In this document: positions 7,727-58,904 of the stretch, in pieces
How positions within the stretch are numbered: position 1 is the stretch's first letter
How the letters are laid out: every line of letters starts with the position of its first letter
DNA from: an uncultured Gammaproteobacteria bacterium
GTDB lineage: Bacteria; Patescibacteriota; Patescibacteriia; Magasanikbacterales; GWA2-37-8
Direction: 5' to 3'
NCBI GenBank assembly: GCA_964355175.1
Contig: CAYHBZ010000002.1
Location: 204,537-268,536, forward strand
DNA: 64,000 nt
Program-made: the position numbers and the translations under genes
Notes under the pieces: generated by a model
Seen by the model: only the letters and a program-made list of their open reading frames with translations
Told to the model about the DNA's origin: nothing
Database searches by the model: none

Positions 7727-8036
7727 TTAAAAAATTTGTCCACATTTTTAATTTGACCTTCTTAAAATTTACTATTACTATACTCGTAGTTCTTTAGGTA
7801 TTAAACTCTATCAAACGTGGAAGTGAGGTGTGATTCCTCCACTGTGCCGCAACGGTAAAGCCCCGACTGAATCGGGGATAAGTCCGGTCTTCGTATGATA
7901 TGGTTTGTAGCTATCCTCGAGCAAGGACGAGCGAAAACAGGCCCCAAGAAAGTGCACTTATCTGTATTTTCTTGGGTTCTGATTCTCGGCGTCCTTGTTG
8001 TTTCAAGGACGCTTTTGTTTTCTCTGGAGGTGCACG

Positions 8037-31694: not shown

Positions 31695-32095
31695 TGGTAG
31701 TATTAGTCCTGTTTATAGTGGATGATCGTCCCCGACCTAGTCGGGGGAGGAAAGTCCGAACACTTTCTTTGAAAAAAGAAAAAAGGCAGTGGGTAACGCC
31801 CACCGGTTTGGCGGCAACGTCAAACAAGGGAAAGCGGCACAGAGACAATACTACCCCGACTCAGTCGGGGGAAAGGTGAAAAGAATATGGAAGTTCTGAC
31901 TCTAGAACAGAGCTACCATATACCGACCGTTGTGAGACGGTCTGGTGCCAAGCCCTGCCTGGGTGCAAGAGCAGCCTATGAGAGAGACATAGGAAAAGTT
32001 CGCTCGCTTGATTTTGGTAGCAATACCAGAGCTAGATAAATGATCGTCGTGTCTTGCTAAACACAAGATTTACAGAATTCGGCTTATAGCTGTAA
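31695..32095 (+). ncRNA. rnpB: RNase P RNA (bacterial type A)
   Basis: P4 halves GAGGAAAGTCCG and ACAGAATTCGGCTTAT; GGGTAACGCC, ACAGAGACAAT, GGTGAAAAG conserved blocks; P3 hairpin CCCCGACCTAGTCGGGG; ends approximate. Confidence 0.8.
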
Positions 32096-32103
32096 ACAAA
32101 AAA

Positions 32104-50250: not shown

Positions 50251-50445
50251 TTAGCGGTTAATTAAAGTCTGGATACCAAGGTTGAACATATAGTCGAGCG
50301 CTGTGAAAAACAAAGCGACGCCTACGCTCAAAGCCACCACAACTAGGCTGTAGTTGATAGTCTGCTGTTTGGTTGGCCAGGTGACTTTCGTCATTTCGGC
50401 ATAAGAGCCGAGCAAATAATTTTTGATTTTACCAAAAATGTTCAT
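50251..50445 (-). CDS. secE: preprotein translocase subunit SecE
   Basis: 64 aa single TM, position immediately upstream of nusG. Confidence 0.8.
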   Translation of the reverse strand: MNIFGKIKNYLLGSYAEMTKVTWPTKQQTINYSLVVVALSVGVALFFTALDYMFNLGIQTLINR

Positions 50446-50622
50446 AAATAAGGGTTATTTGGCTAATATTAGCCAAAGTTAATATTTTTTGATTTTTAAA
50501 ACAGCCTTGCGGCTGATTTATGTTCTTATAATATCATAAATATGGTAAAAGTCAATAGCGGGTATGCACAGGGTATTTTGGCTAATATGAGGGATTTATT
50601 GGAATTTATCGCTGTAAACCTC

Positions 50623-50651
50623 TTGACAAGAATGCCTAAAAGTAGTATAAT
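50623..50651 (+). promoter_or_regulatory. consensus sigma70 promoter TTGACA-N17-TATAAT
   Basis: perfect hexamers, 17-bp spacer. Confidence 0.55.
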
Positions 50652-50657
50652 TATCTG

Positions 50658-50777
50658 TTATTTAAAAATAACACAAATACCCAAGTCGTGCCTACTGTTA
50701 CTTTTTTAGAGAGAAGTAAACAATTGGTCTGGTGTATTGTTGTATATAAACTCTCTCTAATCGGAGAGTTTTTTTAT
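50658..50777 (+). ncRNA. candidate about 120-nt small RNA (promoter to intrinsic terminator CTCTC-TAATCG-GAGAG + T7)
   Basis: consensus promoter followed 100 nt later by hairpin + U-run; no ORF. Confidence 0.3.
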
Positions 50778-50780
50778 TCT

Positions 50781-50822
50781 GTTCTTTACAAAAGATATTG
50801 AGTCGATACTAAACAAAGAAGA
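50781..50822 (+). promoter_or_regulatory. island promoter module GTTCTTTACAAA (first of four TTCTTTACAAT-type copies)
   Basis: motif repeated at 52055, 54416, 55792, each upstream of an island gene. Confidence 0.45.
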
Positions 50823-50943
50823 ATCTTTGCTTGGTATCGGCTCGGTGTCCAAGATCAACGCCGGGCCACAGGTGTGGCAATCTAAAGTCGCAAAACGCGA
50901 CAGGTTTCGACCCCACCTAGTGGGTCTTGTGTTGGAGTACATC

Positions 50944-51279
50944 ATGAACTGTGCTATCCTGATTTCCCTCGTCGCCTTGTTCTGTATCGTGATCATCATC
51001 CGCGCCAAGGAATTTTCATGGCATGCATACGGCCTGGTGCTCGCCGTTGAGTTCGTCGCGGAAATCTTTCGCGAGAACAACAAGATCGGGGACACCGCCG
51101 AGAACGCCATGTTCTGGGCGGCCATGTTCGGTCTCCTCGTCCCGCTTTTCTTGGCGGTGTGGTTTCGTACTGGCAAGAAGGCCGGTCTCACTCCTCGCGA
51201 GCGTGGCCTGGCACTGGCGGCTAATGCTGCCTTGGCAGATAAGGATGCCAGCGTCCATTCCGACAGCAGGCGTCTCTAG
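50944..51279 (+). CDS. GC-rich small 3-TM membrane protein, paralog A
   Basis: SD GGAG before ATG; paralogous to 51565-51894 (shared R-x-KEFSW-x-A...LVLAV-FV core); upstream part of the 50827 ORF is hairpin-dense and probably 5'UTR. Confidence 0.5.
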   Translation: MNCAILISLVALFCIVIIIRAKEFSWHAYGLVLAVEFVAEIFRENNKIGDTAENAMFWAAMFGLLVPLFLAVWFRTGKKAGLTPRERGLALAANAALADKDASVHSDSRRL

Positions 51280-51287
51280 TAGGTTTA

Positions 51288-51367
51288 GGACTTTGCCTGC
51301 GCAAAGCGCACAGATTATCAAAGGTTGAGCTAGAAAAAGTAGCTCCTGATGATATCTGAAAAAGTCT
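51288..51367 (+). ncRNA. structured RNA motif A (GGACUUUG ... CUGAAAAAGUC closing helix with two internal hairpins)
   Basis: paralogous to motif B with compensatory changes in internal hairpins. Confidence 0.45.
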
Positions 51368-51478
51368 ATCCCCAAGTGTCTGAAGGGCGAAAGTCGCCCA
51401 ACATTACGATGACAGTCGTAATGATTATCAACACGAAGTGAGGGATAAAAAATCCGAAGCGCTGTCACGCTTCGGAAC

Positions 51479-51528
51479 CCTGTCTGCGAATTTTGTTCGC
51501 ACTGATGAGTCCTTTAGGACGAAACAGG
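51479..51528 (+). ncRNA. hammerhead ribozyme, type III (copy 1)
   Basis: CCUGU-C|UGCGAA-UUUUG-UUCGCA-CUGAUGA-GUCC-UUUA-GGAC-GAA-ACAGG: complete catalytic core, GUC cleavage triplet, stems I/II/III. Confidence 0.85.
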
Positions 51529-51564
51529 AAAGATCTTTCACAAACGGCGCGTGCGCCTTATAGG

Positions 51565-51894
51565 ATGGATGCTGTCATGGTCATGCATGGTTTTTTCGTT
51601 GAGTACGGGTTCCTCGTGCTCGTCTTCATGGCGGTCTTCTGTGGGATCATCACTTACCGTGGCCGCGAGTTTTCGTGGCCGGCGTTTCTGGTGCTTCTTG
51701 CGGTGGACTTCGTGGTCAGCTTTTTTCAGAATCGAGAAGAGGCCAACCTCATTTTCGCCTGGGATTTTCTGGCCAACTGGACGGTTGTGATCGGGATCAT
51801 GGTCCAGATCGGCATGGGACTTTGGTTCAATACACATCCTCCTCGTTGCCCGAAATGTGGGTATAGCCTCCATTTGAGGCCCCCACCATCGTAG
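51565..51894 (+). CDS. GC-rich small 3-TM membrane protein, paralog B, ending in C-x2-C
   Basis: start at MDAVMVM after the ribozyme; C-terminal CPKCGY. Confidence 0.5.
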   Translation: MDAVMVMHGFFVEYGFLVLVFMAVFCGIITYRGREFSWPAFLVLLAVDFVVSFFQNREEANLIFAWDFLANWTVVIGIMVQIGMGLWFNTHPPRCPKCGYSLHLRPPPS

Positions 51895-51899
51895 GTTTT

Positions 51900-51987
51900 G
51901 GACTTTTCCTTCTCGAGTAAAATCGAGAACAGTATTGCAGACAGTTGAGACGATTAAATTCGCTCCTGTCGGGATCTGAAAAAGTCC
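51900..51987 (+). ncRNA. structured RNA motif B (GGACUUUU ... CUGAAAAAGUCC closing helix)
   Basis: same architecture as motif A; hairpins TCTCGAG-TAAAA-TCGAGA and GAGACGA..TCGCTC replace those of A. Confidence 0.45.
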
Positions 51988-52025
51988 ACAATCCCTTAGT
52001 TTCCAAAATTTGGAAATTGAGAGAT

Positions 52026-52046
52026 GAAAATCACTCTGTGGTTTTC
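52026..52046 (+). terminator. island hairpin module GAAAATCAC-NNN-GTGGTTTTC (copy 1 of 3)
   Basis: same hairpin at 54387-54407 and 56741-56762, each just upstream of a TTCTTTACAAT promoter or the island edge. Confidence 0.45.
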
Positions 52047-52054
52047 ATTAAATG

Positions 52055-52086
52055 GTTCTTTACAATTTATATCTACGCTAAAAAAT
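52055..52086 (+). promoter_or_regulatory. island promoter module GTTCTTTACAATTTA ... TAAAAAAT
   Basis: repeated motif. Confidence 0.45.
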
Positions 52087-52290
52087 AAATGGCCTCCGCT
52101 ATCTATATCTTTTTGTTTCAAGAAAATATAGACAGCGGAGGTCAAAGAGACAGCCGTGGTGAAGGTTGGGGCCGACGGGCCTCCATCCTCCTTATTAAGG
52201 GGAAAACAGGATGGGGGTCGCAAGTTGCGTCCCCAACTAAGTTCATCGCGGCGTTGACGGACGCCAAATTTCCAAGTTCCGGAGGATGCC

Positions 52291-54219
52291 ATGTTCAAGA
52301 ATTTCTTCAATCTCACGCTCTACACCAACACCTCCACCAAGGGTCCGATCGTCGAAAACTTCTTCCGGCGGATCGTCATCGCGATCTGCTGTCAGGGGAC
52401 CTTCGACTGGATCATGTGGTACTTCGCCTTGGTGTTCGCCATGCACAACAGCGTGCTGGCGGCCATCTTGGCGACGGTGATCGTGCTGGGCGTGGTCCAG
52501 CTCGACATCGCGATCGTGACCGCCGACGACAAGGATGTCAACGTGAAGCGGCGTTGGGCCAGCCTGGCCTGGCGTTTCCTCTTCACGTTCCTGGTCGCGG
52601 GCATCACGTCGGTGCCGCTCGAGCTGAACTGGTTTCAGAGTGAGATCACGCACAGGCTCGACGCCAAACAGAAGAAGGAGATCGACCAGATCCGGACGTC
52701 CGCCATGGTCCAGGAGAAGGCGCGCATCGACAAGGAGATCGAAGACGTCACCGCCCAACTGGCACACGAAGCGTCCTCGACGCAGGGCGCCGCGGTGGCT
52801 GACCTGCAGAAGTACGAAGGTGATCGGGCGGCGATACTGGCGCAGATGGTGACGAAGGAGAGCGACGAAGAGGCGGCGTTCCTGAAGCGAATCGATGATA
52901 AGGAGAAAGACGCGTACGAGGAGTCGGCTGGTAAGGGAGCGAGTGGCCAGAGGGGCTGCAAGGACTCATGCAGGCTGAAGCTCGGGCAGGCGAAACAATG
53001 GCGTGAGGATCTCGCCAACAAGAAGATCGCTCACTCCCAGGCGGTCATCGACTTCAACAAGGAAACCCAAGACCACCTCGTTTCGCTGCGCGCGAAGCGG
53101 GACACGACCACTGGCTCCAGCCTCAAAGACATGAAAGAGCAGTTGGGGGGGCTCCGCAAGGAGCGCAAGGACAAGGTCGAAGAACTCCGCAAGATGGACC
53201 CCGAACGGGTTGCCGACCTCTATGGCGGCAAATTCCAGAAGGAATTCGGCTTCCAAGACAGGTACGATACTCTCGAACAGATGCGTTTGGAAAGCTCGGC
53301 CGTCAACTGGGCAATCTGGGCATGCCGCGTCATTGCGGCCATCATGGGGTTTCTCGTGCTTGGTATGGCGCTCTCGGCGCCTACGGAAGTGAAGGAGTAC
53401 TTCTCAGTGGCAGCACAGGCGGAGGCTGGCGATCCGTACGCCAAGAAGGTCATGGGCATCATGGGCTACGAGAATTTCAAGGACGCCGCCCTGACTCCGA
53501 AGGCCCGCAAGGCTCTCGTGGAACTGTTCATGGTTCGTCAAGAACTGTGGGCCGTCGTGATGGAGCTGGAACAGCAACTGGTCAGCGTCGTCGTCCCCGA
53601 CGAACGCACCGGACTGTATCTGAGCAAGCTCCGGATCGAAGGTATGATCCATGCCATGTGGGTGCAGAAAGGCGCCGACGCGATGAAAAAGCTCGGCAAG
53701 GCTGAAGAAGAGGTGCGGCGTGCCGGTCAGAAGGTCCCGTCGTGGCCGACGGACAAGCTGGGTCAGGACCCGCGCCTGACCGACCCGTGGAAGATCGACG
53801 AACGGCGACTGGCCAGCTTCGGCTGGGAGTCTCCCGAGGAGATCATCACCGCGGGCAAGCTGGGTCTCAAGAATATCACTGGCCATCGCCTCATGCTGCG
53901 TCAGCGGCTCGAGGAGATGGAGGCGACCCTCCAGGAGAAGATCAGTGGCAACTCCACGGTCAGCTTCGAAGAGATCCGTCGCCATCAGAACCAGGGATAT
54001 CGCGAGAAGATCCTGCCGACGTTGAACGACATCCGGTCCAGCGAGGACGCCGTCCTCAAGGCGCACTTCGAGGTGCCCACCTGGCCGGATGACTTCGCCG
54101 ATCCGCGCGGTGGACTCTACCAGCGGCTCTGCCTGCTCTCGGAAGACGAGCTGCGTCAGCGCTATGACTGGAAGGGGATCGCCATGCCGGGACTGACCAC
54201 CCCGACCGCTACAGCGTAG
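52291..54219 (+). CDS. GC-rich 642-aa membrane protein: 3 N-terminal TM helices, about 230-aa coiled coil, 4th TM, C-terminal globular region (DUF4407-like architecture, tentative)
   Basis: SD GGAGG 5 nt upstream; TM and heptad-rich segments read from translation; 230-nt hairpin-rich 5'UTR. Confidence 0.6.
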   Translation: MFKNFFNLTLYTNTSTKGPIVENFFRRIVIAICCQGTFDWIMWYFALVFAMHNSVLAAILATVIVLGVVQLDIAIVTADDKDVNVKRRWASLAWRFLFTFLVAGITSVPLELNWFQSEITHRLDAKQKKEIDQIRTSAMVQEKARIDKEIEDVTAQLAHEASSTQGAAVADLQKYEGDRAAILAQMVTKESDEEAAFLKRIDDKEKDAYEESAGKGASGQRGCKDSCRLKLGQAKQWREDLANKKIAHSQAVIDFNKETQDHLVSLRAKRDTTTGSSLKDMKEQLGGLRKERKDKVEELRKMDPERVADLYGGKFQKEFGFQDRYDTLEQMRLESSAVNWAIWACRVIAAIMGFLVLGMALSAPTEVKEYFSVAAQAEAGDPYAKKVMGIMGYENFKDAALTPKARKALVELFMVRQELWAVVMELEQQLVSVVVPDERTGLYLSKLRIEGMIHAMWVQKGADAMKKLGKAEEEVRRAGQKVPSWPTDKLGQDPRLTDPWKIDERRLASFGWESPEEIITAGKLGLKNITGHRLMLRQRLEEMEATLQEKISGNSTVSFEEIRRHQNQGYREKILPTLNDIRSSEDAVLKAHFEVPTWPDDFADPRGGLYQRLCLLSEDELRQRYDWKGIAMPGLTTPTATA

Positions 54220-54386
54220 ATAGAGTGGAATCGCTCAAGTGCACAATGTCGCAGACAATTTCGCGACACGGTGACGAAGAGCAATTCTCAAAGGGTTAGG
54301 ACGCCCTGGTCCGAGCAGTGTCGAAAGATACTGCTCGGACCAAAGTCCTTCACTTAGTAGCTAAAAATATTTGGATACTGAGTGAA

Positions 54387-54407
54387 GAAAATCACTTTGT
54401 GGTTTTC
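54387..54407 (+). terminator. island hairpin module GAAAATCAC-TTT-GTGGTTTTC (copy 2)
   Basis: repeat of 52026-52046. Confidence 0.45.
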
Positions 54408-54415
54408 TTAAAAAA

Positions 54416-54455
54416 GTTCTTTACAATTTAGGTTATGGTAAAAATTGATTTTCAA
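54416..54455 (+). promoter_or_regulatory. island promoter module GTTCTTTACAATTTAGG
   Basis: repeated motif. Confidence 0.45.
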
Positions 54456-54581
54456 ATCTCGTACGCTTTGTGAGCATATTTTTTGTGCTTAAAAAGCGTA
54501 CGAGATCTTTTCCGTAGCGCCAACAATTTCTCAAAGATGCGCCCGAGATGTTATCGGATGTGCTTAGGGAAAATTCCAAAG

Positions 54582-55646
54582 AGGAACCTGATGCCAAAAT
54601 TTTGGCTTCTCGTCGCTCTCGTCTGCGCCATTGGGTGTGGACGCGAAGAGCGTCGATTCAATCAACCCGATCCCGCTTCGGTCGAACTGCAGAATTCTAT
54701 CGACGAGCGTGCCAAGCTGGCGCGTGAGAACAAGGAATTGCGCAAGAAGCTCGAAGCGGCGCAGCAGGTCAAGAAGCCCGTCGAAGATGATGAGCGCCTC
54801 TGCACTCTGGAGTACGCCAAGGCCAAGGATCCTGGGAAACTCGAAGCCATCACGGCCAAGTGGGCGGCGGCAAAGGCGGAATACGAGAAGCAGCTCGCCG
54901 AGCGGGAGAAGAAGATTTCAGAAGCGGAATCGTTGCCTAGTGACCCGCTTCCGGATTTCCCCTTTTCTCCTCCTTTGAATTGGGACATCAGTGTGCCCAG
55001 TCCGGGCATGAAGGCCATTTATGGAGAGGATAAACTCTGCCATTTGAAGGAGGTGGCGCAAGAACCGTTCCGGTCTTTCGGCGGCACGAACAACCATTGG
55101 AGGATGTTTATCCGCGAGGCCATGGACAACTTCCAGGACAACGACATCGAAGATGATCTAGAGTACGACGACTTTCGGTCATCCGTACGGACCATCGAGA
55201 TGCTGAAGGATCCGGGCGAAGGTCGCCAACTGGCCGATAATCTTCTAAGCGTCTTGGTCAAGAGTCCTACGTCCATGCAGTGGGCGGTTGGCTTGATCTT
55301 GCGCCTGGAAAATCAGGACTTCTTGAAGGTGCGTCTGCGGCGGCTCTACAAGGCCTCCAAGACTGACTTCGCGAAGCTCGACGCTGACATGCTGACCGCG
55401 CTCGGAAAGTACATGAAGGAGCATCCCGAGATCAAGGTGATGCAAAACCCCGGGAGCGATGTTTACGGTCCGGAGTTCGACTTCGGCCCTTTTGCCCAGG
55501 ACGGCAACTACTACAAGGGTCTGCTTTTCCGGTATTGGCGCTACAAGGAAGAAGTCCAGGGACGTGGCAAGGGAGACAAGTTCATTCGTGATCTGCAGAA
55601 GACCATGAAGGAGGTGGCCAAGGGCATGAAAGTCAATTTGCAATGA
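54582..55646 (+). CDS. GC-rich lipoprotein (lipobox AIGCG) with N-terminal coiled coil, unknown function
   Basis: start MPKFWLLVALVCAIGCG; heptad region ARENKELRKKLEAAQQ... Confidence 0.55.
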   Translation, partial: RNLMPKFWLLVALVCAIGCGREERRFNQPDPASVELQNSIDERAKLARENKELRKKLEAAQQVKKPVEDDERLCTLEYAKAKDPGKLEAITAKWAAAKAEYEKQLAEREKKISEAESLPSDPLPDFPFSPPLNWDISVPSPGMKAIYGEDKLCHLKEVAQEPFRSFGGTNNHWRMFIREAMDNFQDNDIEDDLEYDDFRSSVRTIEMLKDPGEGRQLADNLLSVLVKSPTSMQWAVGLILRLENQDFLKVRLRRLYKASKTDFAKLDADMLTALGKYMKEHPEIKVMQNPGSDVYGPEFDFGPFAQDGNYYKGLLFRYWRYKEEVQGRGKGDKFIRDLQKTMKEVAKGMKVNLQ

Positions 55647-55716
55647 CCGAAGCGACAATCGTCGCGTCGGTCTGCGCCATAACCTCGTGGGGGCCGATGC
55701 GAAAGTGTCGGTCCCC

Positions 55717-55777
55717 GGAGTCTGCCGGTTTTGCCGGCACTGATGAGTCCAGAAATTTATTTTCAAGGACGAAACTC
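55717..55777 (+). ncRNA. hammerhead ribozyme, type III (copy 2)
   Basis: GGAGU-C|UGCCGG-UUUUG-CCGGCA-CUGAUGA-GUCC-(16-nt loop)-GGAC-GAA-ACUC. Confidence 0.85.
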
Positions 55778-55791
55778 AAGTATAATAAATT

Positions 55792-55826
55792 GTTCTTTAC
55801 AATGTAGGTTGTGTAAAATAAATTTC
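55792..55826 (+). promoter_or_regulatory. island promoter module TGTTCTTTACAATGTAGG ... TAAAAT
   Basis: repeated motif. Confidence 0.45.
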
Positions 55827-55970
55827 TTGAAAAAGAAATGCGAGTACAATGTTTATTTTTACAAGTAAATAATGCACTCGTATTTCCAAAAGATGTTGTC
55901 TAGTTGGCCACGATGGTCAGCTGTGCAAGCATCGCGAGATCCCTCACCAATCGGGTGAGAGGAGGGTGCC

Positions 55971-56558
55971 ATGGTTCGTGGTTTCTGGTTTCTGGTGGTT
56001 CTGGCGGTGCTGATGGCGAGCTGCAACGGCAAGGGCGAGCGCGAGAAGCGGGATCAGAAGACCCACGAGGAGCTGATGAAGGGGCTCGATGGCGAGAACG
56101 AAGCCTGGAAGAAGCTCCCTGCTGAACCGCTCAAGCCTGTGGTGAACGAGGGCTTGCTCTTGCGGCACTCGCGCCCCCAGCCGCGTCCGTGGGTGGATCT
56201 GCCAGGTATGGCGACGCCTGTGGAGCTCGCAAAAGCGGCGACGTTGCACGACGGGGAACCCCGGGATCTGCTGGAGACGGTCCACAAATCCGTCCATCCG
56301 TCAGAATTCCTGGAAGGCGACCCGTCCCCGTACCTGGAGTTCAATGTCAGTGATCGGGTGGGTCGTAGCCAATACAGCCTGAAGCGTATCAAGGTGCTTG
56401 AGCGGAGTTGCCGCGCTGAAACCGTGGAGAGCCTCGAGATGTGCTTGTCGGAGCAGATCAGCATCCTCCTCATGCATGTCGAGGCTCTCGAGAAAGAGAA
56501 CGAGCGTCGGCACAAGGCGACGGCGAAGCTCAGGAATGCGATCAAGAAAAAGCGTTGA
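55971..56558 (+). CDS. GC-rich lipoprotein (lipobox MASCNG) with C-terminal coiled coil/basic tail
   Basis: MVRGFWFLVVLAVLMASCNGKGE; C-term EALEKENERRHKATAKLRNAIKKKR. Confidence 0.55.
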   Translation: MVRGFWFLVVLAVLMASCNGKGEREKRDQKTHEELMKGLDGENEAWKKLPAEPLKPVVNEGLLLRHSRPQPRPWVDLPGMATPVELAKAATLHDGEPRDLLETVHKSVHPSEFLEGDPSPYLEFNVSDRVGRSQYSLKRIKVLERSCRAETVESLEMCLSEQISILLMHVEALEKENERRHKATAKLRNAIKKKR

Positions 56559-56639
56559 GCCGTGCGACGAAATTCGTCGCGAAGTTCACCTACAACCTCA
56601 ACGGGATCAGGCGCGCGAAGTACGCGTGTCTGGTCCCAA

Positions 56640-56700
56640 GGAGTCTGCCGGTTTTGCCGGCACTGATGAGTCCAAAGAATTTTGTCTAGGACGAAACTCA
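56640..56700 (+). ncRNA. hammerhead ribozyme, type III (copy 3)
   Basis: GGAGU-C|UGCCGG-UUUUG-CCGGCA-CUGAUGA-GUCC-(15-nt loop)-GGAC-GAA-ACUCA; stem I/III identical to copy 2, loop II differs. Confidence 0.85.
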
Positions 56701-56767
56701 AAAATAAAATCCTTTAGTCTCTGTTCGGAGATTGAGGGATGAAAATCACGCAAGTGGTTTTTGTCAA

Positions 56768-56812
56768 AACAAAAAAACCACCGATTCTCTAAACGGCGGT
56801 TTTTTGTTTTTA
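56768..56812. terminator. bidirectional terminator at island/gyrB junction
   Basis: ACCACCG-loop-CGGCGGT hairpin flanked by A7 and T6. Confidence 0.65.
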
Positions 56813-56816
56813 TTTT

Positions 56817-58904
<2,088 letters not shown>

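Follow-up and report, generated by a model that had tools for sequence, protein, structure and literature searches.

A previously uncatalogued RNA family with a covarying three-way junction behind hypervariable small membrane-protein genes

We analyzed a 64,000-nt stretch of the bacterial contig CAYHBZ010000002.1 (the window), in which two structured RNA motifs, A and B, lie directly behind two small membrane-protein genes, ORF1 and ORF2 (ORF, open reading frame), in an island between secE and gyrB. Both motifs are members of a new, previously uncatalogued RNA family that has no match in Rfam; the family sits within a known broad category, that of bacterial RNA motifs that are conserved and either act in cis or are associated with ribozymes. 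Homologs in several genomes, together with compensatory base changes, identify it as a conserved structured RNA family, which keeps a fixed place and orientation behind protein-coding genes and is embedded among modular neighbors. As far as sampled, the family is confined to one lineage of candidate-phyla-radiation (CPR) bacteria. Our interpretation, which we hold tentatively, is that motifs A and B serve as cis-acting 3'-untranslated region (3'-UTR) modules for the recognition and stability of the mRNAs of the gene cassettes in which they lie.

Fold, covariation and spread of the RNA family

Each motif folds into a three-way junction (Table 1). The closing helix P1 comprises 7 bp, with GGACUUU paired with AAAGUCY; P2 is a short hairpin whose pairing is kept and whose sequence is free; and P3 is a bulged arm of ~19 bp that is closed by CAG/CUG and contains a conserved GU-N-GAG...CUCC bulge region. 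The folding energy is -26.4 kcal/mol for motif A (z = -4.1) and -31.9 kcal/mol for motif B (z = -4.4), and none of 200 shuffled sequences was as stable in either case. Motif A starts 8 nt after the stop codon of ORF1 (51277-51279), and motif B starts 5 nt after that of ORF2 (51892-51894). Reading the sequence confirmed the positions that the original prediction had given for the two motifs, and the blocks GGACUUU, GUUGAG, GCUCC and AUCUGAAAAAGUC that it had described as shared are all found in both; the exact 13-mer ATCTGAAAAAGTC occurs in the window in motifs A and B alone. The proposed anatomy of two hairpins is correct in that both stems exist, but the second of them is only the tip of the P3 arm, and the closure of this arm by CAG/CUG makes the architecture a three-way junction rather than two hairpins sharing one loop. 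Three further elements had escaped the earlier description, namely an AGGUU sequence upstream of the junction, a covarying hairpin (P4) downstream of it and a clamp-only variant after ORF3.

Relatives of ORF2 and ORF3, found by a search of 5.8 billion proteins in which the two families have only 2-6 relatives, led to four contigs (L001, L002, L003 and L007), each containing two small ORFs that are both followed by a further copy of the motif. A covariance model, R1, was built, genome and metagenome collections were scanned with sequence patterns, and the matches were filtered by the model. The scan of genome contigs used a loose pattern and returned mostly chance matches; among the 119 matches listed, those in contigs L099 and L121 are real. 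In total, the search and the alignment of its results gave at least 25 full copies (22 distinct) with covarying P2 and P3, plus one decayed copy, in 17 contigs (the window and 16 others). Full copies score 57-98 bits with models R1 and R2, compared with at most 19 bits for chance pattern matches. The decayed copy (L137, positions 7914-7993, minus strand; 21.5-24.8 bits) has suffered a deletion that fuses the ORF to the 3' half of the motif (...UUGAGCUAG..GCUCCUGAAUGCGCUUGAAAAAGUCC). Viral contigs had no matches to the strict pattern GTTGAG..CTCCTG..ATCTGAAAAAGTC or to a looser pattern, and no protein relatives were found in them.

The taxonomic assignment of the family relies on a named genome record, L099, which is labelled Candidatus Magasanikiibacteriota, a phylum of Patescibacteria (CPR); its 690-aa ORF is not GyrB. 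Contig L121 (CAYZHG010000084.1) is labelled uncultured Gammaproteobacteria and shares the secE-leader-cassette arrangement of the window. It is probably mis-binned CPR DNA, since its secE neighborhood is the same as that of the window.

Covariation was assessed in the 22 distinct sequences, which have a mean pairwise identity of 65% (43-99% among copies). Cells with standard pairs amount to 90.9%, whereas displacing the 3' partners by 1-3 columns leaves 27.6-48.3% paired, and the observed covariation score was reached by none of 500 column shuffles. Changes on both sides occur in 21 of the 33 pairs, three of which, located in P1, are register-shift artefacts that come from copies with six A residues rather than five. 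Double changes affect six of the seven pairs of P2 and 12 of the 19 pairs of P3; P2, for instance, occurs as UGCGC/GCGCA, CCCGAU/AUCGGG, UCUCGA/UCGAGA and UGCAC/GUGCA. The same helices were obtained with MAFFT and RNAalifold without model fitting. The compensatory changes first noticed between two sequences thus hold across 22 distinct homologs.

Conservation is distributed unevenly over the fold. P2, its loop and the P3 loop are randomized, whereas P1, the CAG/CUG pairs, the bulge region, the AA junction and AGGUU are invariant, which indicates selection on specific nucleotides and therefore favors specific recognition over a generic hairpin. Between loci, the module is 70-80% identical, compared with 51-61% for the upstream coding DNA; motif B and its near-identical counterpart in L001 share 98% identity. 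On the sense strand, G-U pairs outnumber A-C pairs (26 versus 10), which favors an RNA of that strand as the functional form.

We compared the motifs with Rfam 15 using cmscan (E <= 10) over positions 50400-58500 and, with lax filters, over 51260-52060 (801 nt), and found no match belonging to them. The sole overlapping match (6.3 bits, minus strand, 51928-52004; gathering score 90) is due to chance. No covariance-model match at E <= 10 was obtained for twister, twister-sister, pistol, hatchet, hairpin, HDV-like and other Rfam ribozymes, so the motifs remain unclassified after the comparison with known self-cleaving classes that the original prediction had proposed. They are not hammerheads either: the junction strands in the 22-copy alignment are NCC, 0-1 nt and AA, with no hammerhead core, and a hammerhead-like reading of motif A (CUGAUGA...GAAA...GUC) was rejected, CUGAUGA being present in window copy A alone and not conserved.

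A reading of the motifs as intrinsic terminators, whether decayed or in tandem, or as generic stabilizing hairpins without a specific function is most improbable. The stability of the hairpins and their location in a 3' UTR would fit it, and an automatic scan reported other terminator-like sites nearby. However, P1 is followed by AUCCC or (G/A)CAAUCC instead of a U-tract, the terminator-like hairpin is a separate one 40-60 nt farther 3', the compensatory changes keep a branched fold with invariant unpaired nucleotides, and the consensus terminator scan made no call within either motif. The missing U-tract, the separate downstream terminators and the covarying branched fold exclude the decayed terminator array that had been named beforehand as the refuting alternative.

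Modular surroundings and proposed function

All 25 full copies lie in the sense orientation just 3' of an ORF. The gap between stop codon and motif is 0-9 nt in 22 copies and 20-31 nt in the other three, two of which still have the canonical stop in frame a few codons past a newer stop codon. The upstream ORFs are mutually unrelated and represent at least four families of small membrane proteins and a coiled-coil protein. They include ORF2-like proteins with a C-terminal CxxC, a 131-aa family (MFEFCNKY...), families of 65-72 aa and 107-128 aa, the coiled-coil protein of 130 aa, and proteins at the ORF1 position that are unalignable between loci. The interval between secE and gyrB contains one, two or five ORFs in different relatives. 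This hot spot (window positions 50446-56816; L128, L129, L132 and L139) is hypervariable, with unrelated ORF families, and all its cassette versions share the promoter box, the 3' module and the terminator repeats; a second hot spot adjoins a DUF6580 gene (L099, L127 and L133).

The sequence AGGUU is invariant and lies 2-4 nt 5' of P1 in every copy (22 of the 22 listed), mostly overlapping the stop codon as UAGGUU, GGUUAA or GGUUGA. Downstream of P1, two layouts can be distinguished. In type B (12 copies, 11 distinct), (G/A)CAAUCC opens hairpin P4, which is followed by a terminator-like hairpin and often by the next promoter box, and no hammerhead occurs within 400 nt. P4 shows compensatory changes (RNAalifold, 11 type B copies), and the terminator-like hairpin is a repeat with three copies (52026-52046, 54387-54407 and 56741-56762). 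In type A, AUCCC...GGGAU encloses two hairpins, and a further hairpin and a type III hammerhead ribozyme follow. The hammerhead core lies ~110-135 nt 3' of the motif in eight type A copies (the window, L001, L003, L007, L127, L129, L130/L139 and L137). The window, L001, L003 and L007 have a common version of the spacer (86-89% identical, hammerhead included), whereas L127, L129, L130 and L137 have a different sequence in the same overall layout. The type A-like loci L131/L136 and L133 carry hairpins and a terminator instead, without a hammerhead.

The hammerhead that the original prediction had placed beside the motifs is real (hammerhead 1 in Table 1) and, judging from the family consensus, is predicted to cleave after GUC at 51484/51485. 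Owing to long stem II loops, hammerheads 2 and 3 fall below the gathering score. The two share 93% identity over the 5' 42 nt and 85% over a 26-nt 3' stretch, and occur without the junction motif. The outer frame of the module is also found with other interiors. The clamp-only variant after ORF3 (fold z = -7.8) is matched by neither R1 nor R2, and a site in L001 (5158-5240) has the same frame (AGGUU, GGAC/AAAGUCC clamp and P4), yet another interior.

Several other assignments were tried and rejected. A stop-codon readthrough signal was rejected because copy A has three in-frame UAG codons (UAG UAG GUU UAG). An antisense RNA was dismissed, as the scan found no promoter-like site on the minus strand near the motifs. 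A tRNA-like structure or RNase P substrate, a U-A-U triple-helix clamp and pairing with an upstream small RNA (ACUUUUUUAGA versus UCUGAAAAAGU) were dropped because the features they require either fail to covary or lack conservation between types A and B. A pseudoknot between AGG and CCU of junction J1/2 and a helix P0 (GGUU:AAUC) are possible from complementarity, with both partners invariant.

We propose the following scheme for the function of the module. In the transcripts of small, hypervariable cassette genes, it would be the first element to follow the stop codon; these genes are rich in G+C at third codon positions (GC3) and occupy hot spots of a Magasanikiibacteriota-like lineage, mostly between secE and gyrB. 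Each cassette would be driven by its own promoter-like box. Where two cassettes share a transcript, the type III hammerhead ~110-135 nt 3' of the module would cut them apart, and each mature mRNA would thus end in one junction module and further hairpins. The module would be recognized in a sequence-specific manner by a factor acting in trans, most likely a protein (for instance a processing RNase or an RNA-binding protein), and this recognition would set the stability or the 3'-end processing of the cassette mRNA. Because the sequence is free in P2 and the loops but fixed in P1, in AGGUU and at the junction and the bulge, a generic block to exonucleases would be insufficient, and a specific partner is the simplest reading. 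Hairpins after at least two of the promoter boxes, downstream hammerheads and GC-rich ORFs in AT-rich UTRs are consistent with heavily processed, stabilized mRNAs. The scheme extends a published proposal in which bacterial hammerheads process polycistronic transcripts to give RNAs that differ in stability (PMC6765202).

Several points weigh against this scheme. It depends on in vivo cleavage by the hammerheads, on the existence of a binding factor and on an effect on stability, all of which we infer, and no candidate binding protein was identified. Conserved nucleotides would not be required for a plain exonuclease barrier, and the scheme could therefore be right about recognition and still be wrong about stability. 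P1 never covaries, its proposed pairing follows from complementarity alone, and two copies have a C-A mismatch at the innermost pair. Because every copy belongs to a single narrow lineage, common descent could account for part of the invariance. Finally, a conserved junction and bulge are equally expected of a ribozyme core or a ligand pocket.

The ribozyme explanation holds that the motif is a new self-cleaving class that, with or instead of the hammerhead, trims the 3' UTR of cassette mRNAs. We consider it unlikely, although the motif shares intergenic regions with type III hammerheads, the context in which twister-sister, pistol and hatchet turned up (PMC6765202), and forms a compact ~85-nt junction that, like its bulge and the adjacent AGGUU, is rich in invariant nucleotides. 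On the 801 nt, none of the known ribozyme models gives a match at E <= 10, cleavage in the 12 type B copies (11 distinct) would remove the protective 3' hairpin and the terminator, and a hammerhead that is predicted to work already lies 110-135 nt downstream in type A. Moreover, other structured RNAs near ribozymes did not cleave on testing (PMC6765202). The type B copies without a hammerhead, the same outer frame with different, unrelated interiors and the L137 copy without its 5' half fit a 3'-UTR module better than a ribozyme. The original prediction was thus correct in seeing an unclassified, conserved and covarying RNA, which is linked to hammerheads in many loci, but nothing here shows the self-cleavage that it had suggested.

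A switch, in which the junction would sense a ligand or a terminating ribosome and refold the downstream hairpin, terminator or hammerhead, appears about as improbable as a ribozyme. The conserved junction core is aptamer-like, 22 of the 25 full copies have their stop codon within 0-9 nt of P1, so that a terminating ribosome would be expected to reach or unwind part of P1, and AGGUU could pair with the AAUC that also starts P4, giving mutually exclusive helices. However, these alternative pairings lack covariation, AGGUU and CCU/AAUC being essentially invariant; the stop codon is 20-31 nt away in three copies; no riboswitch family in Rfam matches the motifs; and a 3'-UTR position is unusual for riboswitches.

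A more far-reaching version of these ideas is likewise doubtful. It would make the junction RNA a new catalytic or ligand-sensing class that operates with hammerheads in an undescribed modular expression scaffold for expressing and swapping foreign-looking, hypervariable small membrane proteins. As part of the same doubtful reading, the scaffold would consist of a promoter box, a 5' hairpin, an ORF slot, AGGUU with the junction, a hairpin and a terminator or hammerhead, at fixed chromosomal hot spots of CPR bacteria.

Very few structured RNAs are known from CPR bacteria, and our literature search gave no meaningful link between hammerheads and these organisms. The motif family is better conserved than the genes before it and is attached to unrelated, fast-changing small membrane-protein genes. 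This attachment points to a shared system of post-transcriptional control or processing for a variable gene set, which possibly serves surface functions or host interaction. The motif is a concrete candidate that could be assayed cheaply as a ribozyme or riboswitch, and its loci provide a natural setting for learning how bacterial hammerheads affect polycistronic mRNAs.

The island between secE and gyrB

The motifs lie in a ~6-kb island (~50780-56770) between secE-nusG-rplK and gyrB, with a G+C content above that of the window (~41%). The island contains five ORFs, all on the plus strand (Table 1); ORF1 and ORF2 are 32% identical (E = 2e-12). GC3 is 0.68-0.82 in the island ORFs (0.73 in ORF1), compared with 0.42-0.47 in the neighboring host genes (0.57 in secE), and the intergenic modules of the island have 36-46% G+C. 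The coding sequences of the island thus look compositionally foreign, yet they are set in host-like UTR scaffolds. Searches of the island ORFs with Pfam, PHROGs and PADLOC assigned a domain to ORF3 alone (DUF4407) and gave no significant match for the small ORFs. The promoter-like box has four matches in the window at up to one mismatch, all of them exact and all inside the island, and hairpins sit after at least two of the boxes.

Table 1. Positions of the junction motifs, their flanking elements and the genes of the island in the window
Feature	Position	Strand	Description
Motif A, three-way junction	51288-51367	+	Fold and covariance model R1, 77.2 bits, E = 2e-18
Motif A, P1	51288-51294 / 51361-51367		
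Motif A, P2	51298-51302 / 51306-51310		
Motif A, P3	51311-51332 / 51340-51358		
Motif B, three-way junction	51900-51987	+	Fold and R1, 85.3 bits, E = 1e-20
Motif B, P1	51900-51907 / 51980-51987		
Motif B, P2	51910-51916 / 51923-51929		
Motif B, P3	51930-51953 / 51960-51978		
AGGUU of motif A	51281-51285	+	2 nt before P1; unpaired in consensus fold
AGGUU of motif B	51893-51897	+	Overlaps UAG stop codon
Type A spacer domain	51368-51446	+	AUCCC...GGGAU enclosing hairpins GGGCGAAAGUCGCCC and AUUACGA..UCGUAAU
Hairpin abutting hammerhead 1	51453-51476	+	
Type III hammerhead 1	51477-51530	+	Rfam RF00008 (Hammerhead_3), 52.1 bits, above gathering score of 48.5
P4 hairpin	51991-52025	+	3' of motif B
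Terminator-like hairpin GAAAAUCAC..GUGGUUUUC	52026-52046	+	Repeat families D2, D4, D12
Clamp-only variant after ORF3	54293-54348	+	GGGUUA, GGAC, 16-bp hairpin, AAAGUCC; then P4, terminator
Type III hammerhead 2	55715-55780	+	40.0 bits, E = 4e-6, below Rfam gathering score; 3' end of ORF4
Type III hammerhead 3	56638-56702	+	35.3 bits, E = 1e-4, below Rfam gathering score; 3' end of ORF5
secE-nusG-rplK	49.2-50.4 kb	-	
Promoter-like box GTTCTTTACAA (11 nt)	50781-50791	+	ORF1 unit; also at 52055, 54416, 55792
ORF1	50944-51279	+	111-aa small membrane protein; 3' UTR holds motif A
ORF2	51577-51894	+	105-aa small membrane protein, ORF1 paralog; 3' UTR holds motif B
ORF3	52291-54219	+	DUF4407 domain
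ORF4	54591-55646	+	
ORF5	55971-56558	+	
gyrB	56817-58898	-	

The composition of the island bears on the possibility that the motif is a DNA-level recombination site, attC-like or resembling a miniature inverted-repeat transposable element (MITE), which exchanges cassettes and whose folding would take place in single-stranded DNA or be irrelevant. The motif does lie directly behind cassette ORFs and has conserved ends (GGACTTT...AAAGTCC) around a variable but paired interior, and the ORFs between the conserved modules, foreign-looking in GC3, are swapped among strains. We nevertheless regard such a site as very unlikely. No integrase or transposase was detected among the island ORFs by Pfam, PHROGs or PADLOC, each cassette has a promoter box and a terminator of its own, the motif has a single orientation relative to transcription, and the excess of G-U over A-C pairs is on the sense strand. 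Integron core sites follow the consensus RYYYAAC/GTTRRRY, which the motif ends do not resemble. An integron attC site was accordingly rejected on the ends (GGACTTT...AAAGTCY), the absence of a recombinase domain in the island ORFs and the promoter-like box of each unit. A MITE was rejected as well: the copies are 43-99% identical with compensatory changes, unlike near-identical MITEs, and occur in one orientation at a fixed place behind the stop codon.

Two further regions of the locus were noted. The 5' UTR of ORF3 (52066-52290) is long, contains a 26-bp hairpin at 52090-52144 and further G+C-rich stems, and is almost identical in L001, L002, L003 and L007; a further structured regulatory RNA may lie here. 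The region 50623-50778, between secE and the island, is an unannotated small RNA or leader, with a perfect sigma-70-type promoter (TTGACA-17-TATAAT, 12/12) and a transcript of ~120 nt that ends at an intrinsic terminator (50748-50771) with a run of 6-7 U behind it. This RNA has no Rfam match and is conserved in L001, L002, L003, L007 and L121. Pairing of UUAGAGAGA with the 5' strand of this terminator could provide an antiterminator-like alternative. Elsewhere in the window, Rfam models matched an AdoCbl riboswitch (7792-7936, 63.3 bits) and a bacterial RNase P class A RNA (31710-32102, 177 bits).

Comparison with known systems

The closest known counterparts of the motif are the hammerhead-associated RNAs, namely twister-sister, pistol, hatchet and the non-cleaving orphans. 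Like them, it is compact, conserved and covarying and lies in intergenic regions with hammerheads, in neighborhoods of poorly annotated genes (PMC6765202). Unlike them, it has no match in Rfam 15, and its three-way junction is closed by an invariant helix, is preceded by AGGUU and keeps strictly to its place after the stop codon.

The type III hammerhead (RF00008) is similar in being a three-helix junction, and is located in the same UTR; by chance, motif A contains CUGAUGA and GAAA. However, the junction strands of the motif (0-3 nt) do not form a hammerhead core, and the Rfam hammerheads of the window are only those at 51477-51530, 55715-55780 and 56638-56702.

Hairpins of the phage T7 type that are cut by RNase III lie right after cistrons, where they set the mature 3' ends and shield the mRNA upstream; long helices with bulges are typical of them. 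The motif resembles them as a structured element directly behind a cistron of a multi-gene transcript. It differs from them in being branched, with a conserved junction, and the predicted cutter here is a ribozyme.

Integron attC sites share with the motif a position directly 3' of a variable cassette ORF, conserved ends, a variable paired interior and conserved bulges. Unlike attC sites, the motif is found here without an integrase and without the core-site consensus, behind cassettes that have their own promoters and terminators, and the strand bias of its wobble pairs points to an RNA of the sense strand.

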